Source: Phyllobates terribilis (Eukaryota). From it: a stretch of 64,000 nt of DNA. Below the pieces are notes generated by a model. That model was given only the letters and a program-made list of their open reading frames with translations, was not told the origin of the DNA and ran no database searches. The stretch is taken from the NCBI RefSeq assembly GCF_046119375.1, contig NW_027362769.1:363382001-363446000 (forward strand), written 5' to 3'. Positions 35,096 to 64,000 of the stretch are shown here, piece after piece (the first letter of the stretch is position 1; every line of letters starts with the position of its first letter). Made by a program: the position numbers and the translations under genes.

Positions 35096-35155
<60 letters not shown>
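35096..35155. repeat. (TA)n microsatellite
   Basis: Direct reading. Confidence 0.95.
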
Positions 35156-35163
<8 letters not shown>

Positions 35164-35171
35164 TTATTTAA

Positions 35172-36172
35172 AGAGTAACTATCAATTGTTTTAAATTAAT
35201 ATTTTTATTATGTTAAAAAAATTGAATAGGTCTTCATTATTATTTTTTTTAGTTTTTGTAACTATTCCTACACTAAACTGTCCCTAACGCTGCGTTTTTT
35301 GCTACGTTTTTTTATGCTAATTATGCTAATTTAAAGCAGCAAAGTACAGTACCAGCAAAGTCTATGAGATTTGCAGAATTGCTGTTCACACGCTTGTTCT
35401 TTTTTACCTGCATTTCTTGTTTATTAACTGCTTTTTTCAAAGAATGAACATGTCAAATCTTTGCTGCGTTTTTTGCTGCTTTGCTCCATAGGAAGCAATG
35501 ATAAGGCAAAAACAGAGCAAAAACGCAGCAAACCAACATTTTGCAAGCAGGTCAAAAGTTCATGGTTTTTCCAAAGATTTTTGCTGCTACCTAATTAGCA
35601 TAAAAAACGCAGCAAAAAACGCACCGTGTGAACTTAGCCTAAATCACTCAGTTGCAAAAACGCAACCGACTGTCCCTTGCCAAGCTATCCTCCTAAACCG
35701 TTTTCACATTGAAGACGCTTTAGTACAATGAATGCGCGTCCCCGGGCATCACATGAGTGCTTAGCTCGCTTCTCATGGGAAGAGAGCCAGCGCACCGCTG
35801 TACTGAATGAATGGCAGCCGTGCCATCCCAGGCGCCATGTAATCTACTGCACTGCAACCCCGGGAGACATCTCCTGAGGCTTCAGCGTATATACGTTCTG
35901 TATATAGACCGATGCTGCCTGCGCAGCATGGCTCTGTATACCGCGATGTGCGGGCACTCCGGCGAGGACGCCCACACGTCATCAGCCGGCGTGCACGTGC
36001 ATCCTGGCATTTGTTCAGTTGCGGGATGGCCCAGAAGAGGAGCTTCGTGGATCGACAGGAGTGTAATTAAGAAGTTTTTTATTTTTAAACTGGTCCAAAT
36101 GGGTTCAGGGGGGAGGGGGGGGCCCAAAAAAAAAAAAAAAAGAAAAGAAAAAAGGTAAATGATAGTTGATCT
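35172..36172. mobile_element. Kolobok/T2-type MITE (TTAA flanks), itself carrying nested inserts
   Basis: TTAA-AGAGTAACTATC ... GATAGTTGATCT-TTAA; homologous to 40319-40709. Confidence 0.65.
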
Positions 36173-36266
36173 TTAAATGACTTCTTGTTTTGGTTTTTAT
36201 ATTGTTTGAATTTCTGTATCTTTTTTTCATAATTAAAAAAAAAGTTCTTTACAGGAATTTTGAACA

Positions 36267-39200: not shown

Positions 39201-40235
39201 ATCAGTGCAATTGCTGAGACACATGCACATAAACTACCAAATGATGTTATCGCTGAAGTGGACCGTATAATGATCAAGAAGATCAACATGGATACTTTAA
39301 GTGGACAGCAGTGGCTGGATGACACAATTATTGATGCATACTTGGCACTACAATGTAGTGTAGCCATGGGGAAAAACCCTCACCTGAAATTTGCCTACAT
39401 TCCATGTAACTTCGTTGAAGCATTTTGCAAGAAGTGGACTAAAAGCAAAACACCCTATCACACTACAATGATACATGGGAAGAGAAACAACATATGGCAC
39501 AAGGATATCATATTAATACCTTGCTATATATTTGGCAACCATTGGGTGCTAACAATAGTAGTGCCAAAATATAGAAGTGTCTATTATATAGACAGCAAGT
39601 ACAGTGCAGAGGATAAGAAAGTTGTACAGGCAGTCCATGTTCTTCTGAAGGTGTTATCCCATTTGTGTGAAGGAGAGCCATATAACAAAACATGGAAATG
39701 GGTGAAGCCAGTTGATGTCCTGATACAGAAGGATGGCTCCAGTTGTGGAGTTTATGTTTGTATCTGCGCACATGTTTTAGCAAATGGGACCACCATTTGA
39801 CTAAACCATGATGAAGTACACAACTTTCGTGATTTTATTTCTACTGAATTACAAGCAGTGGTTCCAGGCACAGTAAAAGTTACCACACTTACTGGTGATA
39901 CAACTGTGACACTCCCAGAAGTAAGTAGTCAGTGGTGGTCAGATGCAGATTTTACACCAACTGTGCAACCAGGACCTCAAAACTTTTGTACTCTTAATTG
40001 GATGACTAATTTATGTAATACAATTTGGGAAGCCAATTCAAGCATCTGTTATGCAGGAGTGAATTGTTGCCAGCCTAATAGAAATGTGTGTGCAACAGAG
40101 GAAGATATGAAAATGGTTTTCTGTGAATTTGCATGCCAAGAATGGTACCACAAAGCATGTGAAGGACTATCTGATAAACAATTACCATCTATGTACAAAT
40201 GCAGAAAATGTCAAAATGCTGAATTTGAGGTGTAA
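36267..40235 (+). pseudogene. MULE transposase - SWIM - Ulp1/C48 protease - PHD finger ORF (1322 codons) with one in-frame TGA at 39798-39800
   Basis: DDE motifs CDTTF, TDREKAI, CWNH, TTNQSESFN; SWIM CSCPSSRQCHH; Ulp1 WLDDTII, NHWVL, YIDS, QKDGSSCG; PHD C..C..FCEFACQEWYHKAC..YKCRKC; 39801-40235 continues in the same frame. Confidence 0.85.
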
Positions 40236-40318
40236 AGTACCTTTTCCTTGTTAGTATGTAACATTATTAAGCAACTTATGTTTTAAGTGTAAACAGAATA
40301 TGTTTGATTTCTTTTTAA

Positions 40319-40709
40319 AGAGTAACTATCAATTTTTTGTTATTAACATTTATTATATATATGAAAAAAATTTTTTTGAATAGGTCTTTTTTTTTATTCT
40401 TACATTTTTCACACATCCTACAATAATCTGTCCCTAAATCACTAGTTTGAAAACATGCAACTAACTGTCCCTCGCTAAACTATTCTCCTAAAGCGTATTC
40501 AGATTGAAGACGTTTTAGGAGAATGAATGCCCGAGGATGCGCGTGCACGCGCATTCCGGCAACTGTTCAATTGCACTTTGGCCCAGAAGAGGAGCTTTGT
40601 GGGCCGACAGGAGGGTAAATAAGAAGTTTTCTTATTTTAAACAGGTTCTAATGGGTAAAGGGGGTAAGGGGATTCTAGAAAACAACCCTTCAAACATGTT
40701 AGTTACTCT
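40319..40709. mobile_element. Kolobok/T2-type MITE
   Basis: TTAA-AGAGTAACTA ... TAGTTACTCT-TTAA. Confidence 0.7.
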
Positions 40710-41019
40710 TTAATATGGTTTTGTCAAGTATTCGTAATCCATTCAGTTGTGTAAATGTTAATTTAAATATTTCTCCAAAATAAAAGTTTTATGTAACTTA
40801 GACTTGATGCTATGTTTTGATTTGTTTTAAATAAGGTTATGTCAATATTCGCAATCCGTTCAGTCATGTAAGTGTTCACTTAATTTTTTTTCTGTAATGA
40901 AAATACTTTTATGTAATTTATACTTCATCATCTGATCTAGGATTCAGCATTCATTTCAAATCTACAGTAACATATATGAGACTTGTGTTTACAACAGACA
41001 GCTTAATTTCGCCTCATAA

Positions 41020-41325
41020 GGGCTCGTTCACACAGACAGCGTTTGCGCGTTTTTTCAGCGCATCCGTCCTGCACTGAAAAAGTGAGCCTATTGTTGTCAA
41101 TGGGCTAGTGCAGACACTACGCTTTTTCTGCGCATCGAACGGATGCGCAGAAAAAAGCGACAGCTTGTCCGTTTTTGCCGCGCAGAACGGACTGCCGCCG
41201 CCTATTTGAATGACTGTGTGAGCTAAAAACCAGCGACACAGTAATTCAGCATGCTTTTCTTATACGCGTGCGCATAAAAAGCGCATGCACATAACGGAGC
41301 CGAAACGGCCAGTGTGAGTGAGCCC
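41020..41325. mobile_element. PIF/Harbinger-like MITE
   Basis: TAA | GGGCTCGTTCACAC ... GTGTGAGTGAGCCC | TTA. Confidence 0.7.
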
Positions 41326-41829
41326 TTAATTTTTTTTAAAATAAAGTAAACTGTATATTTTATTTTATCAGTAAACTGAGATCAGAGAGATTATATAAAT
41401 TAAGAAAACCATTTAAAAAAAAACTGTGCCACTGCCATAGTCTTGTGTGAAAATCAAACAAACAAAAACAAGGGCTTTAAGGCAAAATTTTTCGATAAAG
41501 ATCTACTTAGGGATTCACTGTTTATTTGAAATGTAAAGTTATTATATAAGAATGCATGAATTAACATGGTTGAAAACAGAATTAGATTTTTAAGCTCTGT
41601 TTTTCTTGTTGGAATAAGTTCATATTAATGACAAACTTATTTTCAGAGTTGCATCAAGATCTTCTCAGGGATTCAGTGTGTATTTGAAATTTAAAGTTAC
41701 TAAATAGAAATGTATGGGTTTGCCTTGTTGAAAACACAATTATAGTTTTAACCTCTGCTACTTTATTTTTAAATAGAGTGAAGTGGAAATGAAAAATACA
41801 TTAAAAAAATTCAACTGTAAAAAAAAAAA

Positions 41830-42460
41830 TACCATAGGCCTAGGTATGGCAGAATGTGGCGGCGCATAAAGACTGATTCCCTAAAAAGATCTTAATGAAA
41901 CTTGGAAGATAACCTTGTTGTACTAATATGAACTTATTCCAATAAAAAAAACGGAGCTTAAAACCGTTATTCAGTTTCCAACCATGATAACACACTAGGC
42001 AGAGGTATGGAAGAATATGGCGGCGCATAAAGACTGAATCCCTAAAAAGATCTTAATGAAACTTGGAAGATAACCTTGTTGTACTAATATGAACTTATTC
42101 CAATAAAAAAAACGGAGCTTAAAACCGTTATTCAGTTTTCAACCATGATAACACACTAGGCATAGGTATGGAAGAATATGGCGGCGCATAAAGACTGAAT
42201 CCCTAAAAAGATCTTAATGAAACTTGGAAGATAACCTTGTTGTACTAATATGAACTTATTCCAATAAAAAAAACGGAGCTTAAAACCGTTATTCAGTTTC
42301 CAACCATGATAACACACTAGGCAGAGGTATGGAAGAATATGGCGGCGCATAAAGACTGAATCCCTAAAAAGATCTTAATGAAACTTGGAAGATAACCTTG
42401 TTGTACTAATATGAACTAATTCCAATTAAAAAAAAGGAGCTTAAAACTGTTATTCAGTTT
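41830..42460. repeat. ~158-bp tandem repeat, about 4 copies, in the right MULE TIR
   Basis: Inverted homologues at 31940-32220 (left TIR) and 41500-41760. Confidence 0.9.
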
Positions 42461-42671
42461 CCAAAAAAGTTAACCCCTACATTCATGTATAGCAACTTTA
42501 TGTCAAATAAATACATAAGTAAATAAATTGGTTATTCTGCTTCAAATAGAGTGAAATGGAAAGGAAAACTAAATTAAGAAAATGAAACTGTAAAAAAAAA
42601 CTACCATAGGCATAGGTATAGATAAATGTGGCACATAGGGTTTTAGTATGCACCATTATGGAGGATTTGGT

Positions 42672-42687
42672 GGCTCTGAAAAGAGCC
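42672..42687 (-). terminator. Histone 3' stem-loop of H3
   Basis: Minus strand GGCTCTTTTCAGAGCC ACCAA. Confidence 0.95.
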
Positions 42688-42716
42688 TTTGTGTTAGTCA
42701 GACGTGTAGGACGGAT

Positions 42717-43181
<465 letters not shown>

Positions 43182-43775
43182 TTATACTCCTCTGCTCCTG
43201 TTACCGCGTCATATGAACACGCCCCCTACACTGCATTGATAATATCATAAATTAACATGAGCCGCCAAAACAGGTGTGATATCCGAGACCAATCATTATT
43301 CCCAAAATCATCCCAACGCCCATTAATCCCGCCCTCAAAAAGAGGGGCAGGGTCTCTGTTCACACTCTTTTCTGGCTGCGGATACTGGCACAGGGTCACA
43401 CCATGTCTACATGCGGCTTCTACAGCAAGAGCCGCCGTCGTCACTGTTCTATGTCACCAGTACACGGAGCTGTACAGGGTCTACTCTATCATCAGTCAAA
43501 TCACTGGTTCTCCAATTCTCTCATCGAACTAATAACCGCACACTAATCCTTTCACTAATAAAGACGCAGGTTACAAGTGGTGATTGATTAGGATGATGTA
43601 GATTTCTGTAGGACATCGGCCCCTTCCCTCCATTGATTACACTGATCGGTCACCTGCACTGGTGTGATCGGGACACAGCGCAGCTCTATGCGGAGATGTG
43701 GGGAAAAGCTTATTCATTATAACACTGGAGCCGCTCCCTGTACACACTATAATCTAGAAGCGGCAGCATATACGG

Positions 43776-44400
43776 GCACTGATCATACAGATCTGCCGGG
43801 GACAAGGTGGTGGCACTGATCATACAGCTCTGCAGGGGACAAGGTGGTGGCACTGATCATACAGCTCTGCAGGGGACAAGGTGGTGGCACTGATCATACA
43901 GCTCTGCAGGGGACAAGGTGGTGGTACTGATCATACAGCTCTGCCGGGGACAAGGTGATGGCACTGATCATACAGCTCTGCCAGGGACAAGGTGGTGGCA
44001 CTGATCATACAGCTCAGCCGAGGACAAGGTGGTGGCACTGATCACACAGCTCTACAAGGAACAAGGTGGTGGCACTGGTCACAGCTCTGCCAGGGAAAAG
44101 GTGGTGGCACTGATCAATCAGCTCTGCAGGGTACAAGGTGGTGGCACTGATCATACAGCTCTGAAGGGGACAAGGTGGTGGCACTGATCATACAGCTCTG
44201 CCGGGGACAAGGTGGTGGCACTGATCATACAGCTCTGCAGGGTACAAGGTGGTGGCATTGATAATATAGCTCTGCCGGGACAAGATGATGGCACTGATCA
44301 TACAGCTCTGCAGGGTACAAGGTGGTGGCACTGATCATACAGCTATGAAGGGGACAAGATGATGGCACTGATCATACAGCTCTGCAGGGAACAAGGTGGT
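43776..44400 (-). repeat. 37-bp minisatellite, about 17 copies, containing the H1 cleavage site and U7-binding HDE
   Basis: Minus-strand unit GCCACCACCTTGTCCCCTGCAGAGCTGTATGATCAGT; abuts the H1 stem-loop. Confidence 0.92.
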
Positions 44401-44416
44401 GGATCTGAAAAGAGCC
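44401..44416 (-). terminator. Histone 3' stem-loop of H1 with a C:T mismatch in stem pair 3
   Basis: Minus strand GGCTCTTTTCAGATCC versus consensus ...AGAGCC. Confidence 0.85.
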
Positions 44417-44446
44417 TTTGTGGGGTAATAACAGGGCGGCTTTGGA

Positions 44447-45103
44447 TTATTTCTTAGCTGCGGGCTTCTTGGCTTTAGCTGCCTTCTTAGCAGGACTCTT
44501 GGCAGCTTTGGGTTTAGCAGCTTTCTTAGCCGGACTCTTCGTCACCTTCTTGGGCTTCGGAGCGGCCTTTAGCTTCTTGGGGCTCTTGGCCGCCTTCTTG
44601 GCAGCTGCTGCGGGCTTCTTGGCCTTTTTCGGGCTCTTCTTGGCCGCGGTCGGAGCCTTCTTGGGCTTCTTAGGAGACTTGGCGGCTTTCTTGGCTGCAG
44701 CAGGCTTCTTGGGCTTGGCATCAGCTGCTGACTTCTTCCTGGCCGCTTTGTCCTTAGTCTCCTGCTGCTTCTTGTTCAGCTTGAAGGACCCGGAGGCGCC
44801 GCTGCCCTTCACCTGGAGGAGGGCGCCCTTGGTGACCAGAGACTTGACGGCCAGCTTCAGGCGGCTGTTGTTCTTCTCTACATCGTATCCTCCGGCACAC
44901 AGAGCCTTCTTCAGGGCGGCCAGAGACACCCCACTGCGCTCCTTAGAGGCGGACACGGCTTTCACGATCAGATCGGAGACGCTGGGACCGGAGGGCTTCT
45001 TGCTTTTTTTGACGCCCCCGGCGGCGGATTTTTTCGGCTGCTTCTTGGATTTGGCGGCCGGTTCCGCGGGAGGGGGAGCGGCGGCTGGTGCGGTCTCTGC
45101 CAT
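44447..45103 (-). CDS. H1: Linker histone H1, somatic type, 218 aa (true ATG at 45103)
   Basis: [15 protein letters not shown]; globular domain [39 protein letters not shown]; Lys/Ala/Pro-rich tail with SPKK motifs. Confidence 0.96.
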
Positions 45104-45195
45104 CGTGTGCTGCGGAACTAGAACACAAATATCTCCTGATAGGAAACAAAACACTGAGGCCGGAGCTGGAGGCGCCTGTTATATGTACAGGCTTA

Positions 45196-45603
<408 letters not shown>

Positions 45604-47231: not shown

Positions 47232-50200
47232 TCTACTATATAATTGTCTTATCCCATCTGTCTGTCTATCTGTCTGTCTGTCTTTCTGTCTGTCTGTCCT
47301 GGAAATCCCGCGTCGCTCATTGGTCCGGCAGCGGCCAATCAGCGCCGCGGGATTTCTGAAAAAAGATGGCGGCCGTTAGCGGCTCATCTGGCGGACGGAG
47401 GTCAGCGGCGATGCAGCGGGGAGATGAGCGGCGCTAGCAGCACAACTACCCCGACCGGCGCCGCTGACCTCCATGCGGCTAACGTCGGAAGATCAGCGGC
47501 TTGGCCCGCTGATCTCCCGACAGCAAGTGTGAACGGAGGACCGGGGAGCGGTGCCGCCGGTCGGGACGCTTCTGCTGCGAGCAGTCGCTCATCTCCCGGC
47601 TTATCGCAGCAGATGGAGCCTCACAGGCAGCGGCGCTCCCCGGTCCTCGCTAATACGGAGCCGCACAAGCAGCGCCGCTCCCGGGCTCACACTAATACGA
47701 CGCTGATTGGTCGCAGTGGCCATACGCGACCAATCAGCGAGATGGGTGGCAAATTTAAACGCCGCTCTGCTGATTGGTCGCGGTGGCCGGCCGACCGCGA
47801 CCAATCAGCGAGATGGGAGGCAAATTTAAACGCCGCTGTGCTGATTGGTCGCGGCCGGTCACCGCGACCAATCAGCGTGATGACCGGGAAATTTAAACGC
47901 CGCTGTGCTGATTAATCGCGGCCGGCCACAGCGACCAATGAGCGAGATGGGCGGCAAATTTAAACGCCGCTCTGCTGATTGGTCGCGGTGGCCGGGAGTG
48001 ACCAATGAGCGAGATGGGCGGCAAATTTAAACGCCGCTCTGCTGATTGGTCGCGGTGGCCGGGAGTGACCAATGAGCGAGATGGGCGGCAAATTTAAACA
48101 CCGCTCTGCTGATTGGTCACGGTGGCCGGCTACCGCGACCAATCAGCGAGATGGGCGGCAAATTTAAACGCCGCTCTGCTGATTGGTCGCGGTGGCCGGC
48201 CGACCGCGACCAATCAGCGAGATGGGCGGCAAATTTAAACGCCCCACTGCTGATTGGTCGCGGTGGCCGGCCGCGACCAATCAGCGAGATGGGCGGCAAA
48301 TTTAAACGCCGCTCTGCTGATTGGTCGCGGTGGCTGCAGCGACCAATCAGCGAGATGGGAGGCAAATTTAAACACCGCTGTGCTGATTGGTTGCGGTGGC
48401 CGGCCGTGACCAATTAGCGAGATGGGCGGCAAATTTAAACGCCGCTGTGCTGATTGGTCGCGGCCGGCCACCGCGACCAATGAGCGAGATGGGCGGCAAA
48501 TTTAAACGCCGTTCTGCTGATTGGTCGCGGTGGCCGGCCGTGACCAATCAGCAAGATGGGCGGCAAATTTAAACGCCGCTCTGCTGATTGGTCGCGGTGG
48601 CCGGCTACCGCGACCAATCAGCGAGATGGGCAGCAAATTTAAACGCCGCTGTGCTGATTAATCGCGGCCGGCCACCGCGACCAATCAGCGAGATGGGCGT
48701 CAATTTTAAACGCCGCTCTGCTGATTGGTCGCGGCCGGCTACCGCGACCAATCAGCGAGATGGGCGGCAAATTTAAACGCCGCTCTGATGATTAATCGTG
48801 GCCGGCCACCGCGACCAATCAGCGAGATGGGCGGCAAATTTAAACAACGCTCTGCTGATTGGTCGCTGACGCCAGACGCGACCAATCAGCGAGATTGGCG
48901 CCAAATTTATACAACGCTCTGCTTATTGGTCGCGGACGGCAGACGAGTCCAATCAGCGAGATTAGCGCCAAATTTAAACAACGCTCTGCTGATTGGTTGC
49001 GGTGGCCGGCGCAACCAATCAGCGATTTTGGTGCCAATTTGAAACACCGCTCTGCTGATTGTTCGCGGTCGCCGGCCGCGACCAATGAGCAGTATTGGCG
49101 CCAAATTTAAACGCCGCTCTGCTGATTGGTCGCGGTGGCCGGCCGCGACCAATCAGCAAGATGTCCGGCAAATTTAAACGCCGCTCTGCTGATTGGTAGC
49201 GGTGGCCGGCTGCAATTAATCAGCGAGATGGGCGGCAAATTTAAACGCCACTCTGCTCATTGGTCGCGGCCGGCCACCGCGACCAATCAGCGATATCGGC
49301 GGCAAATTTAAACGCCGCTCTGCTGATTGGTCGCGGTGACCGCGACCAATCAGCGTTATGGGCGGCACATTTAAACGCCGCTCTGCTGATTGGTCGCGGT
49401 GGCCGGCCGTCCGCGACCAATCAGCGAGATTGCCGCCAAATTTAAACAACGCTCTGCTGATTAGTCGCGGATGGCAGACGCGACCAATCAGCGAGATTGG
49501 CGCCAAATTTAATCAACGCTCTGCTGATTGGTCGCGGTGGCCGACCGCGACCAATCAGAGAGATGGGCGGCAAATTTAAACGCCGCTCTGCTCATTGGTC
49601 GCGGTGGCCGTCCGCGACCAATCAGCGAGATGGGCGGCACATTTAAACTCCGCTCTGCTGATTGGTCGCGGTGGCCGGCCGTCCGCGACCAATCAGCGAG
49701 ATTGGCGCCATATTTAAACAACGCTCTGCTGATTGGTCGCGGCTGCCAGCCGCGGCCAATCAGCGAGATTGCCGCCAAATTTAAACAACGCTCTGCTGAT
49801 TGGTCGCGTCTGGTGTCAGCGACCAATCAGCGAGATTGGCGCCAAATTTAAACAACGCTCTGCCTATTGGTCGCGGACGGCAGACGCGACCAATCAGCGA
49901 GATTAGCGCCAAATTTAAACAACGCTCTGCTGATTGGTTGCGGTGGCCGGCCGCGACCAATGAGCAGTATTGGCGCCAAATTTAAACCCCGCTCTAATTG
50001 GTCGCGGCCGACGGTCACGACCGATCAGCAATTTTGGTGCCAAATTTAAACAATGCTCTGCTGATTGGTCGCGGTCACCGGCCGCGAACAATCAGCAGTA
50101 TTGGCACAAAATTTAAACCCCGCTCTGCTGATTGGTCGCGGTTACCGGTCACGAATAACCAGCATTATTGGCGACAAATTTAAACACTGCTCTGCTGATT

Positions 50201-50452
50201 AGTCGTGGCCGTGACCAATCACCATTATTGGCGACAAATTTAAATAACGCTCTGCTGATTGGTCCCGGCCGCGACCAATCAGCATTATTGGCGCCAAATT
50301 TAAACCCCGCTCTGCTGATATGGTCGCGGTTGCCGGCCTCGACCAATCAGCGATTTTGGCGCCAAATTTAAATACCGCTCTGCTGATTGCGCCCGGTCGG
50401 CCGCATACCTATTCTAGAATACCCGATGCGTTAGAATCGGGCCACCATCTAG
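47232..50452 (+). mobile_element. Non-autonomous Helitron #1
   Basis: A | TCTACTATAT 5' end; 3' hairpin CCCGAT..ATCGGG then CTAG | T; no TSD. Confidence 0.85.
47700..50400. repeat. ~60-70-bp palindromic tandem array, roughly 40 units, with paired CCAAT boxes around GGCG(G/C)CAAATTTAAA
   Basis: GCGACCAATCAGC-gagatGGGCGGCAAATTTAAACGCCGCtct-GCTGATTGGTCGC. Confidence 0.95.
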
Positions 50453-51299
50453 TATATAATAAGTACAGTGACAGTGTTGGTTACTGTACTTGTCATTTAG
50501 TGTTAAAATAAAGGATTTATTAAAAAAAAAATTGGCGTGGGGTTCCCCGTTATTTTAGTCTCTAGCGGAGGTTAAGCACATGGCTGGGGCAGATGTTTGA
50601 AGCCTGGGAAGGGGGTAATTCCCACGGAGCTTCCCAGGCTACTAATATCAGCCCCCAGCTGAATACCTAGCCTTTACTAGCTATTAAAATGGGGGACATG
50701 AACTCGACTCATCTGGATGCCGTCACAGCCAGACACTGAGGAGCTTCACTGAGGAGCTTCTCAGTGTCTGCGGCATGGCAAACTGGATGGCAGCGTTCTG
50801 CTGCGATCCAGCCTGTCATGTCAATGTAGCAGAGCTAAAGCCATCCTGGGAACCATGGAAAGGTAAGGAATCCTAACCTCTAGTATTAAAACCTTACGTA
50901 TGTAAAGTGACGTAATGTTAATAAGGGATGAGAAGGCCTGAGACCTGGCTAATGGACACCCAGCCATGGAGAAATATACAAATGTAATGTCCAGGTCTAG
51001 GAAAAAGGAAACCACTCCTTTATTTGCAAAGAGTGCAAAAATCCTGAAACCGAAGCCTAAAGAGAAAAAGTGGAAAATAAATGCATGTGCATGCACTGTG
51101 TAGGCCCATGTTCACACTGGCCACCAAACATTCCAGGGGGCATCGTTTTTCTACAAGAGGTGTATATGATTATATTCCAGGCGGATGTTATTTAACGTAA
51201 TGTTAGTATAAAAAATATATAAAACAACTTGCGCTAGTGTATAGGGTATGTGGCAAGAAATAACATTGAAGATGTTAAAAATGTCCAATTTTATTTAAA

Positions 51300-52078: not shown

Positions 52079-53023
52079 CAGGGCCGGCTCCAGGTTTTTG
52101 TGGGCCCCGGGCGAAAGAGTCTCAGTGGGCCCCTTTAACAGATATTATGATTCCAGATGCACCCCTTAAGTGTGTAAGCCCCCCAACATGCAGCATCAGT
52201 CAAATTCTACATGCAAGAGGAATGAAATGCAACAACACCCCCTTACATATGCAAGGCGCCAACATGCAACATAAAGGGTATGTGCACACGGTCAGTAAAC
52301 GCTGCTGATTGGATGCAGCACACTTGCGCTGCGTGCAAACCACATCATTCGATAATACAAGCAAAGTGGATGGGATTTGAAGAAATCCCATGCCCACTAT
52401 GCATCTCCAGGCACCTGCGGATCACCCGCGGATACGGACTTGCGGCGCGTCTTTCCGTCAATTTCTCTTGCGGAGTCGCTAGTCTCCACAAGAGAAATTA
52501 GATCAGTGCAATGTATAGGATGGGGTGAATCCGCATGGTTCAATGAACACATGCGGATTCACCTGCGTGCAGCGCTTTGGACGCAGCATAAAGTATACTG
52601 CGTTCAAAGCGTTGACAGTACAGATGGTGTGCCCATAACTCATTCCCTGTAAAAGCCCCCACAACATGCAACACATGCATGCATCACCCCCTTCCCTGTG
52701 CTAGACCCTCAACATCACCCACTTACATATGCAAGTCCCCAACATGCAACATCACTTCCCTATGCAATTCCCCACAATATGCAGTGCCATGCATGCATCA
52801 CGCCCTTCCCTCTGCTAGACCCTCAACATCACCCACTTATATATGCAAGTCCCCAACATGCAACATCACTTCCCTATGCAATTCCCCACAATATGCAGTG
52901 CCATGCATGCATCACGCCCTTCCCTCTGCTAGACCCTCAACATCACCCACTTATATATGCAAGTCCCCAACATGCAACATCACTTCCCTATGCAATTCCC
53001 CACAATATGCAATGCCATGCATG
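52079..53023 (+). mobile_element. Left part of a hAT-like non-autonomous element with internal ~118-bp repeats; interrupted by LTR copy B
   Basis: Starts CAGGGCCGGCTCCAGG; repeats at ~52660-53020; other end not in the window. Confidence 0.55.
52276..52640. mobile_element. Harbinger-like MITE
   Basis: GGGTATGTGCACAC ... GTGTGCCCATAAC imperfect TIRs. Confidence 0.4.
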
Positions 53024-53344
53024 TGTGGCACCCCTGAGGGTTCGACCGCCACAGGAATGCTGCACTTCTCTAATGGAGTGTAGTGTTCCTCCTCTGAGGT
53101 AAGCCCGGTGTGATGGTCGCGACCCAGCCTTGCATCCAACACCACACTTCTCCACCAGAGGGAGCTAGTATGCACTAGGTGTTGCTCCCCTGGTTACAGG
53201 GAGACTGGGGAACACAAAGTGGTAGGAACCAGTTAGTGGGTGTGGGTGGAGGACTTACAGGTTAGTTACACCTTAAATTTCATATTTAATAGAAAGCCAT
53301 CTTTGATCTTGGTCTGTTGTTCTTCTCTGGTCCTTTGTCTAGCC

Positions 53345-54886
53345 CAGGGGTCCTCAAACTTTTTAAACAGGGGGCCAGTTCACGGTCCCTCAGACCATTG
53401 GAGGGCCGGAATATAGTTTTTAAAAAAAACTATGAACAAATTACTATGCACACTGCACATATCTTATTTTGTAGTAAAAAAAACAATACAGGAACAAATA
53501 CAATATTTAAAATGAAGAACAAGTAAAGTTAAATCAACCGGTATTTCAATAGGTAGGTAACTGTACCCAATAGGCAGCATAGGTCCTCAATAGGCAGGTA
53601 AATGTCCCCAATAGGCAGCATCGGTCCTCAATAGGCAGGTAAATATCCCCAATAGGCAGGTAAATGTCCCCCATAGGCAGGTAAATGTCCCCAATAGGCA
53701 GCATAGGTCCCCAATAGGCAGGTAAATGTACCCAATAGGCAGCATAGGTCCCCAATAGGCAGGTAAATGTCCCCAATAGGCAGCATAGGTCCTCAATGGG
53801 CAGGTAAATGTTCCAAATAGGCAGGCTGTTTCCCCCTTATAATGCCATATGCAGGCTGTTCCACCCCTTATAATGCCCCATGCAGGCTGTTCCCCCCCAT
53901 ATAATGCCCCATGCAGCATGTCACCCCCCCATATAATGCCCCATGCAGCATGTCACCCCCCCATATTATGCCCCATGCAGCATGTCACCCCCCCATATTA
54001 TGCCCCATGCAGCATGTCACCCCCCCATATTATGCCCCATGCAGCATGTCACCCCCCCTATATTATGCCCCATGCAGGATGTCACCCCCCATATAATGCC
54101 CCATGCAGGATGTCACCCCCCATATAATGCCCCATGCAGGATAACACTCCCCTGTCTTTATTATACCCCATGCAGCATGTCACCCCCCACATATAATGCC
54201 CCATGCAGCATGTCACCCCCCATATAATGCCCCATGCAGCATGTCACCCCCCAATATAATGCCACATGCAGCTTGTCACACCCCCCCATATAATGCCACA
54301 TGCAGCATGTCACCCCCCCCATATCATGCCCCATGCAGGATGTTTACCCCCCCCATATTATACCCCTTGCAGCATGTCACCCCCCCATATAATGCCCCAT
54401 GCAGGATGTCACCCCCCATATCATGCCCCATGCAGGATGTCACTTCCCCATATTATACCCCTTGCAGGATGTCACTCCTCCATATAATGACCTATGCCTC
54501 CATACATTAAAAAAAAAAATAAAATCCAATACTCACCTCACTTCTCACCTAATGCCGCTGCCGCTGCCCTACTCTGGTCTGGACTCCAGCGTCGCGGCGG
54601 CGTCGTCCCGCTCTGCGCTGCCTGTGACGGCACTCGGGAGGGCGCGGTGTAAAGACGTCACCGCATCCTCTGACCTGAGACGTCACAGAAAGCGCAGAGC
54701 AGGAAGACAGCGGATCTGCAGAGGCACAGGGAGAGGTAAGTATCCGCCTGCCGGGGCCCTGAGCAAGCGGGGGAGAAGGGCAGGTGCTGACACCGCTCCC
54801 CTCTCCTCCACCCATAGCCCGGCGGGCCGGATAAAAGTCCTCCGCGGGCCGCATGTGGCCCGCGGGCCGTAGTTTGAGGACCCCTG
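53345..54886. mobile_element. hAT/Charlie non-autonomous element inside the LTR, with internal minisatellites
   Basis: Perfect 16-bp TIR CAGGGGTCCTCAAACT; perfect 8-bp TSD GTCTAGCC (53337-53344, 54887-54894). Confidence 0.93.
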
Positions 54887-55935
54887 GTCTAGCCTTTGCT
54901 AGTCTGTCGGCTGTCTCTGTGCGGTCAAAATACTGTGTGTAATGTGACCTCCCTCCGGGAGCGCAGATCCTATGTGGGCCTGCGCCGGTAAGGGACACAG
55001 CCCTCGTACCCTGGACTTGGGACGAGAGGTAGGTTGTAGACAAGTAATGTCTCAACCCGGCCAAGGACCAGGATCAAGAAGGCCCTGGGAGCTTTAGAGT
55101 GTGGCTCCCCAGCAAATGGGTCCCGGGGAGGATGCAGACGGAGCGGAGCACGCCACCTGTCATCGCCTACCTGATCTATTCAGAGGGATTCCGGCTGCAA
55201 GAGGGGTACCGGCCCTCGACACCCGACCTTGTACTCTATGTCCTGGACGGGAAAGCCCGGTTAGGCCCTGAGGATCCCACCGGGCATCGGATGGAGAGGA
55301 ATTGCCACCCGTGCCCTAGTCCTGAGAGGAGCTCAGAGGGAGACCCGGCCTATCTACACACGCACAGACGGGAAAGGGTGAAGTTTATAGTGCAGGAACA
55401 CTCTGGTGTAGGGTCGCTACCGAACACTGGACTTTCTCGGAGGTAGTCGGACCACCGTCCCTGGTGGCCGCAGGACTCCGCGGGGAGCAGGGAGTCGCCT
55501 TCCCGCTGACATCTCTAAGTGAGTAAAGCCTTGGAAGTTCACCCCTATGGCCTCTGGAGTGTTCATTACGCGCCATACCATGCGACGCGGTGCCCGTACT
55601 CCCCGCACTACTACCCCCTCTCTTTCCTGTTTGCCTGCCCTGAGGCCTTGCTCCGCCTGTGGGGAGCAGCGAGAACTTTAGCCGCCATGACACCGGGCCT
55701 CAGCGGACTGCAGCGGCGCTGGTGACCCTTCACCAGGCACCACAGGTGGCGTAGTCGTTAAAATAAGCCACTCAACCCGGACAAGCCCACAGCATCTCTT
55801 TCTAATGTGACGGCCCTGAGCACGGGTCGGGCCTAGGCCACGGCTGCATCCCATCTCTCCATCACAGGGCCCGACACCGAGTCCCCCATCACCCAGGGTA
55901 AAACATGGGTTTCTCTGAGTAGAGGCGTCACAACC

Positions 55936-55953
55936 TGGCGTAGTCGGCAGGAT
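55936..55953 (+). promoter_or_regulatory. Primer-binding site for tRNA-Ser
   Basis: TGGCGTAGTCGGCAGGAT, 3 nt after the LTR end; same as copy A. Confidence 0.9.
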
Positions 55954-56312
55954 CGCGTGCCCGCAGCAAAGGAAGAAGTGCCTATTGCTATCGGGTACTG
56001 TGTGCCTTACACCTTGAACTGTTGTTTACACTTAAAATGGCGCCCGCCCAAGAAGAACAGACGCCATAATGCTGTGAAAAGACTGTCTTTGAACACCTCC
56101 CATCGTGGGCTGGGCTCCCGCTTGGCGCCAAAAAGGTGGACTGCCCCTTCCATCAGAGACTGTCCGCGGGGTAATGCCCGTCAAACTGGATGGGCTGAAC
56201 AAAGGCGGGCCTGTCAGCATTCCGCCCAGGAACCGCCCCGAGAGAGGAGGAAGAAGCAAAACAACAAGGTTCGGCCATTGCAGTTGGAGCTTGGCAGTCA
56301 ACGGAGGCAGAC

Positions 56313-57245
56313 ATGGATGCCTCTGGGGAGCAAGACCACGCATCTACTGAACCCGGTTCAGGCCCTTCACCCGGCAGAGAGCAAGGCGGCAGCGTATTGA
56401 CCCCGGGAGATATTACATTTCTCCAGCAGGAAGCTCCGGAACTCCTAAAAAGGCAGATAGAGGCCCAGGAGGCGGCGACGGCTGCGTGGCGGGAAGAGAT
56501 GCTGCTGCGTATCCGGGACCGCCGTCAAGGAGTAGAGGTCCCAGGACAAGTCGACTCGGTGACAGAGGTCAAGAGCGGCCCAGCGGCGGGTGAGTGTGCA
56601 ACCCCTGCCCTGGCTGCAGAGCCTACCGTGACTATCTTGGACCTCATGTCGGAGTACCTGATTCCCCACGAGGTCACCTGGGAGCAAGCGTTGGCTCCAG
56701 AGCTGCAATCGGCAGCCATGGGTGAGGACCTGCGATGCCGCCCAAACCCTGATTCGGAGGTGCCTGAAGCTGCAGAGGAAACTACCGGCTCCAACCTGGA
56801 CTGGTCCGTGTCTACAGAGGACTCGCAGCAACCCGTTCTAACCCCGCTACCTGCATGGCAGGAACCTGGCCCGAGGCTGAGGATTGGGCCTGGGAAAACT
56901 AGGGAGGCGACCTAATGGGCTTCCCCCGGGAGACCAGGGCTGAAGCGCGGAGGAGGATCCAGTGGTGCAGCGACCAGATATTCCAGCTCGCATGGGAGCA
57001 GCGTCGGCGGGAGCAGCGCTGCGAGCACCTCGAGGTCAGGACCAAAGCTGCAAAAACTCGGGCGCGTCAGGAGGAGGCCACCCGTCCCAGTCCCCGGTAC
57101 GAAGGCCAAGTCGTCCGTTTTCATCGTGAGGCGGGGTGGGGGTTCATCCGGTGTCCCCAGTTCCAAGACGATGTGTTCGTCAGCCGGCGGGAAGTCGAGC
57201 AGCGCCTCAAGAAGGGACACCCCGGTCGGAACCTCTTCCCAGGAG
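56313..57245 (+). pseudogene. Copy B ORF, 5' part, frameshifted; ends in the N-terminal two-thirds of the cold-shock domain
   Basis: AWREEM, GDLMGFPRETRAEARRR and YEGQVVRFHREAGWGFIR..DDVFVSRREV..NLFPG align to copy A. Confidence 0.8.
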
Positions 57246-58329
57246 GAGAGCCAGGCGGAGGTGACCGAGCGGACCGGGAGGACCAGTAGGAGGCGACCGG
57301 AGGGACGAGCGCAAGAGAGCGCTGTGGCAGCGTGCAGTGCCGGCCAGCGGAGGGTGCCAGGTGGTGGTGACCAGGAGGTGATCAGGAGGACCGGTAAGAG
57401 GCGACCGGAGGGACAAGCGCGCTGTGATAGCGTGCAGCGTCCCTAGAGGAGGTGAGTGAGGGGCAGGAGGCCGCGATAAGCGGCCCTACTGAACCCAAGT
57501 GTGTACTGTACTGTATTGTATTTGTATCTGTATTGTAATTGTATTGTATTCCCTAGTCCATATTTAATTGATTACCCCCCCGTCCATATTTAAATTGATT
57601 CCCCTGAACACCCCTGTCCATATTTAACTGATCCCTCTGACCACATTAAATTGACCCCCCGTCCTCATTTAATTGATCCCCGACCACCCCCCGTCCATAT
57701 TAAAGTGATCCCCCTGACCACATTTAAATGATTGACCCCCCCAGCCCATAATTGATTGATCCCCCTTGTCCTATTTAATAGATTCCCCTTGTCCACTTTT
57801 ACTCATCCCCAGTCCCTATCTATTTGCCTTATCCCCCACCATATTTAATTAACCCCTGTCCATAATTAATTGATTGATTCCCCAGACCACAATTAATTAT
57901 TTCCCCAGTCCATATTTATTGATATTATTGATACTTATTGATCCCCAGTCCTTAGTTAATTGACCCACCGTCCATACCTATTTATTTGCTTTACCCCAAA
58001 TCGTATTTAATTAAACCCCCTGTCCATAATTAATTGATTGATTCCCTAGTCCACAATTAATTATTTCCCCAGTTCATACTTATTGATCCCAGTCCATAGT
58101 TAATTGACACACCGTGCATACTTAATTAATCCACCTGACCCACTCAGCTGATCCCCCGTCCATACTTAATTGATACTTAATTGATCCCCCGTCCATACTT
58201 AACTGATCCCGCGCCGATATCTAATCGATACACTTGCACATCCCTAATTGATCCCCGTCCATACTCCTATATATAAATAATTGTGTTTTGTACTTGTACA
58301 TATATACTGACTGTATCCCCATATTTAGA

Positions 58330-59256
58330 ATGACGTCCATGTTGGCCGGAGCCGTGCAGTGTACATCTTGCGCAATGTATGCATTCCCTGAGCTACCGCT
58401 CAGGGATCCATACTGCTGCGAGAGATGTGAGCATATCGTGCACTTGGAAGCCCAAATCCTGGATCTAAGTGCTCAGATAGCGGTACTGAGGAGCATCGAC
58501 AACATGGAACGGAGTTTGCTGCTCACCGAGCAGACACTCAATGGGTCAACACTGGAGGTGGAGCTTAGTGGAGAAGCGCAGGCTGAACAGGCAGGGAGCT
58601 GGGTAACAGTTAGAAGGGATAGAGGGAAGAAATATAGGAAGGCTGGTTCAGAACCGGCATTATTGGAGCACGACAGATCCTCTGACCGCCGGGGGAGTGT
58701 ATGCTCCAGTAATGAGGGGGAGGGGGGAAGTGTAGGGCAGACTAGACAGGTCCTGGTAGTGGGTGACTCTATTATTAGGGGGACAGACAGGGCAATCTGT
58801 CACAAAGACCGGGATCGCCGAACGGTGTGCTGCCTCCCTGGCGCTCGAGTCCGGCACATCGCGGATCAGGTTGACAGGTTACTGGGTGGGGCTGGCGAAG
58901 ACCCAGCGGTCATGGTCCACATTGGCACCAATGACAAAGTGAGTGGTAGATGGAGGGTCCTTAAAAATGATTTCAGGGATCTAGGTAGGAAGCTTAGGGC
59001 AAGGACCTCCAAGGTAGTTTTCTCAGAAATACTACCAATCCCGCGAGCCACACAGGAGCGCCAACGGGAGGTTAGGGAGGTGAATAAGTGGCTAAAGAGT
59101 TGGTGCAAGGCAGAAGAGTTTGGGTTCATGGACAACTGGGCCGACTTCGCTGTCGGCTACAGGCTCTACCGTAGGGACGGGCTGCACCTCAATGGGGAGG
59201 GTGCAGCGGTGCTGGGGAAGAAGATGGCTAATAGGTTGGAGGAGTTTTTAAACTAG
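58330..59256 (+). CDS. CR1 ORF1: zinc finger, coiled coil and SGNH esterase (ATG at 58330)
   Basis: CTSC..CCERC; VVGDSII, CLPGA, HIGTND, DGLHLN. Confidence 0.9.
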   Translation: MTSMLAGAVQCTSCAMYAFPELPLRDPYCCERCEHIVHLEAQILDLSAQIAVLRSIDNMERSLLLTEQTLNGSTLEVELSGEAQAEQAGSWVTVRRDRGKKYRKAGSEPALLEHDRSSDRRGSVCSSNEGEGGSVGQTRQVLVVGDSIIRGTDRAICHKDRDRRTVCCLPGARVRHIADQVDRLLGGAGEDPAVMVHIGTNDKVSGRWRVLKNDFRDLGRKLRARTSKVVFSEILPIPRATQERQREVREVNKWLKSWCKAEEFGFMDNWADFAVGYRLYRRDGLHLNGEGAAVLGKKMANRLEEFLN

Positions 59257-59290
59257 AGATGGGGGGGGAAACCACGGAAATAGGTGGGAT

Positions 59291-62191
59291 GTGAGGCAAG
59301 CAAGGGGGAAGGGGAGAAGTGAATATAATGAGGGTGGAGAGGGGGGTGGGGATAGTACAGTTAGATCGTTAGAGAAGAATAGGATGCTAAATAACCCCAA
59401 AGTTTTATCTTGCATGCTGACCAACGCAAGAAGCCTGACCAATAAGGCGGATGAGCTGCGGGCGCTTATATCGGAGGAGAGGTATGACATCGTAGGTATA
59501 ACAGAGACTTGGCTAGACGATAGCTACGACTGGGCGGTAAATTTAACAGATTATAGTTTATTTAGAAGGGACCGGAAACAGGGGAAGGGCGGAGGAGTCT
59601 GCTTATATGTAAAGTCACGTCTAAAGCCCAGACTAAGGGAAGATATAGGAGAGGGAGAAGAGGGGGTCGAGTCCATGTGGGTAGAGATAGAGGGGGCAAA
59701 AAATAATAATAAAATATTACTGGGGGTCTGCTATAAGCCACCCAATATAACAGAGGAGAATGAGAAACTGCTATTAGGACAAATAGACAAAGTAGCAAAA
59801 CATAATGAGGTGATTGTAATGGGGGACTTCAACTACCCGGATATTGACTGGGAAACAGAAACCTGTAGATCGCAGAAAGGAAAAAGGTTCTTGACAAATA
59901 TCAAGGATAATTATCTCTCCCAACTAGTGCAGGAACCAACGAGAGGGAAGGCAGTGTTGGACTTAATATTGACTAATAGGCCTGATAGAATAACTGAGGT
60001 ACAGATAGGGGGGCACCTAGGTAATAGCGATCATAATATTATCAATTTCAAAATGCCCTTCAGTAGGGTTATCAATAAGGGAACAACTAAAACATTAAAC
60101 TTTAGGAGGGCGAAGTTTGATCAGCTGAAAGAAAACCTTCAACTTATAGACTGGGACAAAGTTCTTAATCAAGGAAATACGAATAGTAAATGGGAAACCT
60201 TCAAAAGAATTCTGAATACTCAGTGCGAGAGGTATATACCGTATGGGAATAAAAGGGCCAGAAATAAGAGGAAACCAATATGGTTGAATAAGAACGTAAA
60301 AGGGGCGTTAAATAGCAAAAAAGAGGCATTCAAGAGATTAAAACAGGAAAACAGTAAGGAGGCACTAATGTGTTACAAGGAAAAAACGAGAACCTGCAAA
60401 AAACAAATAAAAATAGCAAAGGAGGAAACAGAGAGACGTATTGCTAGGGAAAGTAGATCAAATCCCAAACTGTTCTTTACGTATATAAATAGTAAAAGGA
60501 TTAAATCGAATAATATTGGACCGATAAAAAGTGATGAAGGCAAAATCATAAAGAAAGATGAGGATAAAGCTAATCTATTAAATACATTTTTTTCGTCAAC
60601 TTTCACAAAGGAAAAAGAATTAACAGGCGAAATGAGAAGTGACAAGCTTAATCCTCCACTAAGTATGACAAATCTAACCCAAGCTGGGGTACAGAAACGC
60701 CTCAGTAACATTAAAATAAACAAATCACCAGGACCTGATGGCATACACCCACGGGTACTAAGGGAACTAAGTAATGTGATAGACAGACCATTATATCTTA
60801 TATTTAAGGACTCTGTTGAGACTGGGTCTGTACCACTTGATTGGCGACAGGCGAATGTAGTGCCAATATTCAAAAAGGGAGCAAAAAGTATCACCGGAAA
60901 CTATCGGCCGGTGAGTCTGACGTCCGTTGTGGGCAAAATTTTTGAAGGCTTTATTAATGAGGCAATCATGGAGCATCTTGATGCTAATAATCTATTAACC
61001 CCGAACCAACATGGATTCATGAGGAATCGCTCCTGCCAAACAAACCTGATTGACTTCTACGAGGAGGTGAGCTCTCGAGTAGATCAGCGGGAACCAGTGG
61101 ATGTCGTGTATCTCGACTTCTCAAAAGCGTTCGATAGCGTGCCACATAATAGGTTGGTATACAAAATGAGAATGATGGGGCTGGGGGAAAATGTCTGCAA
61201 GTGGGTAGCTAACTGGCTAAAGGATAGAAGGCAGAGGGTGGTTATAAATGGAATATACTCAGATTGGGTAAGCGTCACTAGTGGGGTACCACAGGGGTCT
61301 GTACTAGGCTCAATGTTATTTAATATCTTTATTAACGACATAGTCAACGGGATAAATAGTAAAATATCAATATTTGCAGATGACACAAAGTTATGTAAAA
61401 CAATTAATACAAAAGAGGACAGTGCAGACCTACAGAGGGATTTGGATAAGCTGGGTAGGTGGAGCATTAAATGGCAAATGAGGTTTAACGAGGAGAAATG
61501 TAAGGTCATACATATGGGAAGGAAAAATGGAAGTCACCAGTACTCACTGAATGGGAAATCATTGGGGAATTCAGAGATGGAGAAGGACTTGGGCATCTTG
61601 ATTGATAGCAAACTAAATTGGAGTGCCCAAAGTCAGGCCGCTGCTGTAAGGGCAAACAGGGTAATGGGATGTATCAGAAGAGGTATAGCTGCAAAGGATG
61701 AGAACATTGTTCTTCCACTGTACAAAGCACTGGTCAGACCACACTTGGAATACTGTGCTCAGTTATGGGCCCCAATATATAGAAAGGATATAAATGAGCT
61801 TGAAAAGGTACAAAGGAGGGCAACAAAATTAATAAGGGGAATGGAGGGACTGCAATACCCAGAGAGGTTGGCAAAACTAGGACTATTCAGCCTGGAAAAG
61901 AGAAGGTTGAGGGGGGACATAATAAATGTGTACAAATATGTTAGGGGACAGTATAGAGACCTTGCCCGGGATTTGTTCAAAAGGAGGGATATTACGGTAA
62001 CAAGAGGGCATTCACTAAGACTGGAAGAGAAAAGGTTTCAGCACCAGCATAGGAAGGGGTTCTTTACGGTAAGAGCAGTGAGAATATGGAATTCACTGAG
62101 TGAGGAGACGGTAATGTCGGATTCACTACACCAGTTCAAGCGGGGACTGGATGCTTTTCTAGATACCAGGCAGATTTCTGCATATACTTAA
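59291..62191 (+). CDS. CR1 ORF2: endonuclease plus reverse transcriptase (start codon uncertain)
   Basis: TNARS, GITETW, YKPP, GDFN, SDHN; YRPVSL, QHGF, LDFSKAFD, GVPQGSVLG, FADD; open throughout. Confidence 0.95.
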   Translation: MRQARGKGRSEYNEGGEGGGDSTVRSLEKNRMLNNPKVLSCMLTNARSLTNKADELRALISEERYDIVGITETWLDDSYDWAVNLTDYSLFRRDRKQGKGGGVCLYVKSRLKPRLREDIGEGEEGVESMWVEIEGAKNNNKILLGVCYKPPNITEENEKLLLGQIDKVAKHNEVIVMGDFNYPDIDWETETCRSQKGKRFLTNIKDNYLSQLVQEPTRGKAVLDLILTNRPDRITEVQIGGHLGNSDHNIINFKMPFSRVINKGTTKTLNFRRAKFDQLKENLQLIDWDKVLNQGNTNSKWETFKRILNTQCERYIPYGNKRARNKRKPIWLNKNVKGALNSKKEAFKRLKQENSKEALMCYKEKTRTCKKQIKIAKEETERRIARESRSNPKLFFTYINSKRIKSNNIGPIKSDEGKIIKKDEDKANLLNTFFSSTFTKEKELTGEMRSDKLNPPLSMTNLTQAGVQKRLSNIKINKSPGPDGIHPRVLRELSNVIDRPLYLIFKDSVETGSVPLDWRQANVVPIFKKGAKSITGNYRPVSLTSVVGKIFEGFINEAIMEHLDANNLLTPNQHGFMRNRSCQTNLIDFYEEVSSRVDQREPVDVVYLDFSKAFDSVPHNRLVYKMRMMGLGENVCKWVANWLKDRRQRVVINGIYSDWVSVTSGVPQGSVLGSMLFNIFINDIVNGINSKISIFADDTKLCKTINTKEDSADLQRDLDKLGRWSIKWQMRFNEEKCKVIHMGRKNGSHQYSLNGKSLGNSEMEKDLGILIDSKLNWSAQSQAAAVRANRVMGCIRRGIAAKDENIVLPLYKALVRPHLEYCAQLWAPIYRKDINELEKVQRRATKLIRGMEGLQYPERLAKLGLFSLEKRRLRGDIINVYKYVRGQYRDLARDLFKRRDITVTRGHSLRLEEKRFQHQHRKGFFTVRAVRIWNSLSEETVMSDSLHQFKRGLDAFLDTRQISAYT

Positions 62192-62400
62192 CAATAGAAT
62201 AAAATAGTAGGTTGATACAGGGATTTATTCTGACTGCTGGTTTCAGAGTCGGGAGGGAATTTTTCCTCAGGTGAAGATTGGCCAAATCATTTGGGGTTTT
62301 TGCCCTCCTCTGGATCAACTTTAGCAATTACAGACCTAACAGGTCGAACTTGATGGACGCAAGTCTTTATTCGGCTTTACTAACTATGTGACACCTATGT

Positions 62401-62562
62401 GACACAGTGACTTTCACTTGCCACCAGGGGGAGCGTGGGTGGTACGCCCTGGACGTACACAAAGTGTCCGGGAGCGACGCCACCCCGCGCTCAGCCTCAG
62501 GGGACCGGCTAGCCACCGTCGGGAGGAATGAGCCCTTTCCAAGACGGCAGCCCGAAGTTTAA
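62401..62562 (+). pseudogene. C-terminal remainder of the copy B cold-shock-domain ORF
   Basis: Translates DTVTFTCHQGERGWYALDVHKV..., matching copy A DVVTFTRHQCAKGPYALHVHRL; TAA at 62560-62562. Confidence 0.85.
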
Positions 62563-62962
62563 AGCAGCCCCCGGCTGTTGTTGCAGTTTTGTTTACAAGT
62601 TTAAAAGTTGACTTTTCCTATTATGCTTAATTTCTAACCCGGTTTCTAGAGACACCTGTCCCTGCGGACTAGCAGACAGACTCTTTCCCCCTGTATATAG
62701 TTTGCATCTCCTTAGGTGCTCCATATTGGTTTTATGCAAAACCGCGGATATTCTCTACCTCAAAACCTCAGAAGAAAAACCTGTTAGGGTGGCTCTCCGG
62801 GAGGTCCAACTCTGGATCTGCATGCCTTGCAGCCACCCCAGGGCCAACGTGGAGGGTTTAGGACCGGTCCCTCGCACTTCTGAACTGACTCGGTGTCCTT
62901 GCACTTTACCTGTCTGTCTGCAATAATGTCTCTGGAAAAATGCTAGCACTTTTATAATTTTA

Positions 62963-64000
62963 CTAGATGTTGGCCCGATTCTAACGCATCGGGTATTCTA
63001 GAATAGGTATGCGGCCGACCGGGCGCAATCAGCAGAGCGGTTTTAAAATTTGGCGCCAAAATCGCTGATTGGTCGAGGCTAGCAATCACGACCAATTAGC
63101 AAAGCGGTGTTAAAACTTGGCGCCTATATCGCAGATTGGTCACGGCCGGCGGTCGCGACTAATCAGCAGAGCGGGGTTTAAATTTGGCGCCAATAATGCT
63201 GATTGGTCGCGGCCAGCGAACGTGACCAATCAGCAGAGTGTGGTTTAAATTTGGCGGCAATAATGCTGATTGGTTGCGGCCGGCGGTCGCGACCAATCAG
63301 CAGAGCGTTATTTAAATTTGGCGCCAGTAATGGTGATTGGTTACGGCCGCGACTAATCAGCAGAGCGGTGTTTAAATTTGTCGCCAATAATGCTGGTTAT
63401 TCGTGACCGGTAACCGCGACCAATGAGCAGAGCGGTGTTTAAATATGGTGCCAATATCGCTGATTGGTCGCGGCCGGCCACCACGACCAATTAGCGAAGC
63501 GGTGTTTAAATTTGGCGCCAATATCGCTGATTGGTCACGACAGGTGGTTGCGACTAATCAGCAGAGCGAGGTTTAAATTTGGCCCCAATACTGCTGATTG
63601 GTCGCGGCTGGCGACCAATCAGCAGAGCGGAGTTTACATTTGGCGCCAAAATCGCTGATTGGTCGTGCCCGGCAGTCGCGACCAATCAGCAGAGCAGGGT
63701 TTAAATTTTGCGCCAATACTGCTGATTGTTTGCGGCTGGCGACCGCGACCAATCAGCAGAGCGTTGTTTAAATTTGGCACCAAAATCGCTGATTGGTCGT
63801 GGCCAGCGGTGGCGACCAATCAGCAGAGCGGGGTTTAAATTTGGCGCCAATACTGCTCATTGGTCGCGGCCGGTGACCGCGACCAATCAGCAGAGCGGTG
63901 TTTCAAATTGGCACCAAAATCGCTGATTGGTCGCGGCCGGCCACCGCGTCCAATAAGCAGAGCGTTGTTTAAATTTGGCGCCAATCTCGCTGATTGGTCG
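62963..64000 (-). mobile_element. Non-autonomous Helitron #2 (3' end), same family as #1, runs off the window
   Basis: A | CTAGATGTTGGCCCGATTCTAACGCATCGGG is the reverse complement of the #1 3' end; same CCAAT array follows. Confidence 0.88.

Follow-up and report, generated by a model that had tools for sequence, protein, structure and literature searches.

Two divergent subfamilies of frog LTR elements encode a cold-shock domain protein with signs of purifying selection

The window analyzed here, a 64-kb stretch of frog DNA, is a histone cluster crowded with mobile elements. The dispersed histone genes (H2A, H4, H3, H1, and a second H2A; 27752-45603) are heavily interleaved with these elements, and the second H2A ends prematurely after ∼70 codons. 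Neighboring elements include a Mutator-type transposase that is open for 1178 amino acids and carries a SWIM finger and a C-terminal Ulp1/C48 protease (36264-39800), a CR1-type LINE with an open 997-amino acid RT frame (22384-25787), and two inverted copies (47700-50454 and 62963-64000) of an element that is mostly a 67-bp minisatellite and that we take, by its hallmarks, to be Helitron-like. The window also holds three related LTR sequences: copy A on the minus strand, copy B on the plus strand, and solo LTR C on the minus strand.

Copy A is complete (8051-13105, minus strand) and has the structure of an LTR retrotransposon, with two TG...CA LTRs of 1259 and 1269 bp (13105-11847 and 9319-8051, respectively), a primer site (11842, minus strand), a purine tract (9331-9321), and a CATG target duplication. 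Its LTRs differ by 3 substitutions over ∼1255 bases, which corresponds to an age of ∼0.5 My at the rate quoted in 10.1101/2023.11.06.565769. Copy A is young, and its frame of 564 codons (11590-9896) contains a single stop (11152-11150); because it is young yet broken, the broken copy was either recently made or moved in trans. Half or more of the words sampled from copy A were present in 8 of 22 runs, among the runs listed. Solo LTR C (34020-34973, minus strand) belongs to a third related subfamily and is 79% identical to the LTR of B over 118 nt by blastn.

The 5' LTR of copy B (53024-55931, plus strand) has TG...CA ends and is directly preceded by CATG. That CATG abuts both A (13106-13109 and 8047-8050) and B (53020-53023) hints at a target preference. 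The LTR is interrupted by a non-coding insert of 1542 nt (53345-54886) with terminal inverted repeats, internal minisatellites, and an 8-nt target duplication (53337-53344 and 54887-54894); the insert is of hAT type, presumably hAT/Charlie as judged from its hallmarks, and the LTR has a net length of 1358 bp once insert and duplication are subtracted. An 18-nt primer binding site (55936-55953, plus strand) and a conserved leader block (56043-56260, plus strand) precede a frame that is now in pieces. The first piece (56316-56915, plus strand) starts at the ATG at 56316, is broken near 56855, and consists of a W-R helix (56403-56528, plus strand) and an otherwise variable linker. The second (56873-57244, plus strand) contains an in-frame stop (56900-56902) and encodes the AW..GxDLMGF block, a long charged helix, and the 5' three quarters of a cold-shock domain (CSD).

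Within this CSD lies a full-length CR1-type LINE (57246-62400, approximate ends, plus strand) with 5' repeats, a 334-amino acid esterase frame, and a 979-amino acid endonuclease/RT frame. This LINE, unrelated to copy B, makes up over half of the span 53024-62562, and the two CR1-type LINEs of the window (997- and 979-amino acid RT frames) belong to different subfamilies. The 3' end of the CSD and a C-terminal tail with its terminal stop follow (62401-62562, plus strand), and then a 3' UTR block that is common to copy A (62686-62765, plus strand, 69% identical). The 3' UTR is interrupted by the second copy of the Helitron-like element (62963-64000, minus strand), whose 67-bp minisatellite continues past the window end. 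No second copy of the LTR of B occurs within the window, and the LTR-retrotransposon features of copy B inside it are the 5' LTR and the primer site only. With a stop, a frame break, and three nested insertions, copy B itself is dead.

Several likenesses between A and B that the first-pass annotation had proposed were confirmed. The LTRs start similarly (TGTGGCACCC and TGTAGCACCC), the length of ∼1.36 kb given for the LTR of B is within 8% of those of A, and the 18-nt primer site, which we take to match tRNA-Ser, is identical in the two copies (A 11842, minus strand; B 55936). Both elements also have the same order of leader, helix, linker, helix, CSD, and 3' UTR, with no space for pol. Two other claims, that A and B are DNA-divergent and alike only as protein and that only three blocks are kept, all at the protein level, did not hold as stated. 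By blastn, A and B are 62% identical over 357 nt of the LTR, 63% over 224 nt of the leader, 62% over 350 nt of the coding block, and 69% over 80 nt of the 3' UTR, and the leader is a fourth block that is conserved as nucleic acid. Although its translated match reaches E = 2e-6, its pN/pS of 1.03 gives no codon signature, and the leader is probably a cis element. Folding of the leader was nothing unusual when compared with shuffled sequences (z of -0.18 and -0.58), and an Rfam scan returned nothing above the gathering score.

Each LTR also contains an inner primer-like motif, an 11-nt one in B (55747-55757, plus strand) and others at 12014, 8217, and ∼34158, located 140-190 nt from the LTR end and ∼50 nt downstream of a 13-nt motif common to LTRs A, B, and C. 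The inner motif of solo LTR C (∼34158) is unlike that of A and B.

Between A and B, a gap-free alignment of 124 codons (tblastn E = 4e-27, 46% identity) covers the AW..GxDLMGF block, long helix, and CSD, and 23 further codons align past the CR1 insertion, from 62401, so the earlier statement that this helix and the CSD are kept was correct; the blastn diagonal agrees for the 124-codon part. Over the 147 ungapped codons, identity at codon positions 1, 2, and 3 is 91, 95, and 58, respectively (p = 2.7e-6), and pN/pS is 0.54 (bootstrap 0.42-0.67). The estimates of dN (0.50) and dS (about 1.8) give a dN/dS of about 0.28, a rough value because dS is near saturation, with the sign of the effect beyond doubt. 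In the other two frames of the block pN/pS is 1.26 and 1.37 and stops are more frequent, and the third-position excess of change is present in the helix part and in the CSD part separately. The ends of the block were picked by protein similarity. Based on these comparisons, purifying selection on the helix and CSD frame since the split of A and B is supported; as it was measured along the deep A-B path only, it does not follow that the protein is needed today.

Non-coding blocks of A and B are also 62-69% alike, which speaks for chance or a nucleic-acid constraint, rather than protein selection, as the cause of the similarity, and such a constraint does hold for the leader. For the helix and CSD we regard this explanation as very improbable, since the third-position deficit is confined to the CSD frame, 124 codons lack indels, and fold and family are conserved; the codon-position test rules out a nucleic-acid-only reading of this block. 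The proposal of one ancestral open reading frame under selection stands for the helix and CSD block and is weak for the W-R helix. No ungapped match between the N-terminal parts scores higher than this segment, said earlier to be kept as a WRxxM helix; its score is reached by 33 of 200 shuffles when it is taken alone and by 7 of 1000 when its register may differ by at most 10 codons from that of the leader. Identity by codon position (19, 15, and 15 of 42) gives no codon signature. The W-R helix is thus probably homologous in A and B, with no sign of selection.

The structure of a 417-amino acid part of copy A was modeled. In the model the N-terminal half is disordered, and a single 48-residue helix (residues 259-306), rich in Arg, Lys, and Glu, precedes the CSD, with pLDDT mostly 80-96 for helix and CSD; what the first-pass annotation had called a coiled coil is a single helix in this model, which may or may not pair with itself or a partner. 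Pfam identifies the CSD (PF00313) in copy A at 33.1 bits (cut-off 27, E = 5e-8) and in the 5' piece of copy B at 19 bits (E = 0.0013), which, as a fragment, falls under the cut-off. Fold matches of the copy A model include CspA, YBX1, and YBX2 (TM 0.89 for CspA and 0.77 for YBX1, by target length), and the model, with its five-stranded OB barrel, is that of a cold-shock domain. In a profile search of solved structures, Y-box CSDs are nearest (E = 4e-14), followed by bacterial ones (7e-10) and LIN28 (6e-5). A match of the helix of one relative, P0003, to a gag N-terminal helix was insignificant (E = 0.17).

Like YBX1 and YBX2, the nearest solved relatives by profile, the frog element CSD has a long loop after RNP2, and it retains the RNP1 aromatics and the RNP2 Phe. 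FRGY2 is a frog Y-box protein, and the Trp and His of the Y-box face serve in RNA binding. The element protein is not a Y-box protein proper: its CSD is ∼32% identical to those of Y-box proteins, the β1 Trp and the RNP2 His of the aromatic face are replaced in both A and B, the tail is short, a long helix stands ahead of the domain, and an RR motif has been added that is found in every aligned member except one. Neither the fold nor a tree (32 rows, 76 columns, no named Y-box row; 4 of 28 branches starred) singles out a donor of the CSD. Support of HIV RNA metabolism by YB-1 is described in PMC6040738.

We mapped contigs from three DNA runs, which represent two samples, to window positions 54896-57330. 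Copy B is a member of a multi-copy family, with 11,063-12,154 contig pieces per run on these 2.4 kb, mostly 90-99% alike, and the second subfamily that had been proposed is supported in this sense. Contig depth for LTR, leader, and frame is in a ratio of ∼15:6:1; such depth cannot rank the parts of an element, and we give no weight to the possible hint that LTR and leader also occur in other elements. Whether family copies keep the stop of B had been raised as a check, and it is missing from nearly all covering contigs in all three runs: the depth differing from the window at 56900 is 20146 of 20184, 22546 of 22553, and 26155 of 26155. Because nearly all covering depth differs there, this stop is private to B. 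The frame break also fits a private change, a weaker case than the stop, with a length difference in 528 of 1613, 15 of 625, and 337 of 2277 of a thin contig cover. Among the 40 of 271 differences that were listed, 9 of 11 near-fixed ones in the coding stretch of B fall at codon positions 1-2, which is consistent with neutral decay of B.

An annotated Phyllobates terribilis protein, P0001 (431 amino acids, 60% identical), reads open across the place of the stop in A; because of this, and because the stop of B is not shared, we infer a single ancestral frame. Relatives were sought with an unfiltered search (the best 150 of 167 matches listed) and with a profile search. Thirteen proteins scored at least 70 bits against the profile, the next one scored 58, and 8 of the 13 had helped build the profile. 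Eleven of the 13 are named, 8 from Phyllobates, Ranitomeya, and Anomaloglossus and 3 from Bufo bufo; none of the 13 comes from Xenopus, salamanders, or fish. The relatives, which are known as annotated proteins, are thus from dendrobatoid frogs and, more distantly, Bufo, and repeats are seldom covered by gene annotation. For the 238-amino acid first piece of copy B, no annotated relative of 130-417 amino acids was found. Divergent CSD proteins of a second group, of Bufo type (P0106, P0112, P0204, P0208, and P0088/P0151), have the same RR motif, and some of them are labeled 'Y-box-binding protein 2-A-like'; the group probably also represents mobile-element genes.

RefSeq/GenBank gene models for relatives exist in several frogs, which would suit a domesticated or captured frog gene family under host selection, with the LTR copies as passengers. 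We consider this quite improbable, as four of these models are fused to unrelated genes (R3HCC1, a transposase, an astacin, and a serine protease), as scattered mobile copies would give, and as the relatives have low identity and form no one-to-one orthologue set, while B is multi-copy.

Fifteen metagenome loci were retrieved with a search pattern for the junction of LTR end and primer site; as the pattern was built from that junction, it tells the nature of elements that have it and leaves room for its use by other lineages. Long frames lie downstream in 13 of the 15 loci, and a CSD lies in none. The two loci scanned with Pfam, L012 and L008, encode a PNMA gag followed by RT-RNase H-integrase, and PNMA is assigned to Barthez in PMC3670739. 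The inner primer-like motif also occurs in L008, L012, and L015 (3 of the 15 loci), 55-86 nt before the true site, and LTRs of over 1 kb are noted for some Barthez families in PMC11117352. In the frames of A and B that were scanned, Pfam finds a CSD alone, with no gag or pol, none of 35 gag- or pol-side frames of the fetched loci matches the window at E 0.01, and the junction pattern has no match in viral contigs. Because the two scanned junction loci are PNMA-gag Gypsy elements and A and B lack gag-pol, the best reading of the frog copies is that of non-autonomous elements within the Barthez/PNMA-type Gypsy lineage. They share with that type the LTR end and the 18-nt primer site; in contrast to it they lack gag, protease, RT, and integrase, have a single CSD gene, and show no DNA similarity (A, B, or C) to the fetched autonomous loci; no helper from this frog was found.

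Two other identities were rejected. An autonomous Gypsy/Barthez element is contradicted by the missing PNMA gag and PR-RT-RH-IN and by the 35 frames above, and an endogenous retrovirus by scanned frames without gag, pol, or env and by the result in viral contigs.

We give about an even chance to the reading that A and B represent two old, multi-copy subfamilies of non-autonomous Gypsy elements in which one sense-strand gene stands in the place of gag-pol and encodes a protein that acts on its own RNA. The established part of it comprises the anatomy, the multi-copy nature of B, purifying selection on helix and CSD since the A/B split, and the CSD fold. The LTR would drive a genomic RNA, and priming and copying of this RNA would fall to an autonomous helper that has the same primer site. 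The protein, in which a disordered linker and a long charged helix are predicted ahead of a Y-box-like CSD bearing a basic RR patch, would bind chiefly the RNA from which it is made and either stabilize or mask it in the germ line or steer it into helper particles. An element that borrows its enzymes would keep such a gene because the benefit would act in cis. Counting against this reading are the broken state of both window copies, the youth of A, the replaced Trp and His of the Y-box face, and the lack of DNA likeness to any fetched locus.

The broken window copies, together with selection seen only along the deep A-B path, also suit the main rival, a relic accessory gene: the CSD would have been selected in an autonomous Gypsy ancestor, A and B would be deletion derivatives, and the gene would now be decaying. 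CSDs do occur alongside full gene sets in bird retroviruses, according to PMC12287698. We consider a relic rather unlikely. A and B share one layout, free of gag and pol and similarly spaced relative to leader and 3' UTR, P0001 has an open frame of 431 amino acids, and no gag- or pol-fused relative was found among 66 matches of 187-2000 amino acids (8000 candidates scored), a search to which a separate frame is invisible.

Another possibility is a counter-defense in trans: the protein could bind small RNAs, tRNA fragments, or single-stranded cDNA to the benefit of the entire lineage including the helper. In solved relatives the CSD binds single-stranded DNA as well as RNA, one young copy has a stop, and the LTRs contain a second primer-like motif; in a high-copy family, however, a shared good should decay, and we hold this to be unlikely. 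Keeping to a non-autonomous Gypsy element whose protein acts in cis, we advance more tentatively, short of an even chance, a broader picture: an old, diverse, and very abundant class of non-autonomous LTR elements of hyloid frogs would have swapped gag-pol for a captured, cis-acting, Y-box-like RNA-binding protein, and these Gypsy satellites with their own packaging or masking factor would have contributed to the giant genomes of poison frogs.

Mammalian MaLR elements are protein-coding non-autonomous LTR elements, with LTRs, a primer site, one frame of their own, and borrowed enzymes. The frog elements are of another lineage, and their frame, in contrast, encodes a recognizable host-type nucleic-acid-binding domain. 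The closest published case is that of bird endogenous retroviruses, likewise LTR elements with a host-type CSD; PMC12287698 describes 46 of them and several captures. These are retroviruses found through RT, whereas in the frog elements the CSD is the sole gene, the lineage looks like Gypsy, and selection was measured between subfamilies. Capture of a CSD by LTR elements is therefore already published for birds, and for frogs our literature search found no report of LTR elements with a CSD gene, although a Repbase/Dfam entry is possible; term searches within PMC6278860, 10.1101/2023.11.06.565769, and PMC12822217 returned no mention of such elements.

Non-autonomous LTR elements are usually regarded as non-coding passengers. 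Here, one such lineage has retained, across subfamilies with near-saturated silent sites, a gene of host type for nucleic-acid binding that was under selection, which suggests that passengers of this kind can bring a working tool with them and, together with the bird retroviruses, speaks for LTR elements having recruited cold-shock domains repeatedly. With one gene and many natural copies, the frog elements would be a simple system for the role of a CSD in LTR elements. They also put a name to part of the unclassified repeat mass in poison-frog genomes and account for several odd gene models in frog annotation, either fused or labeled 'Y-box-like'.
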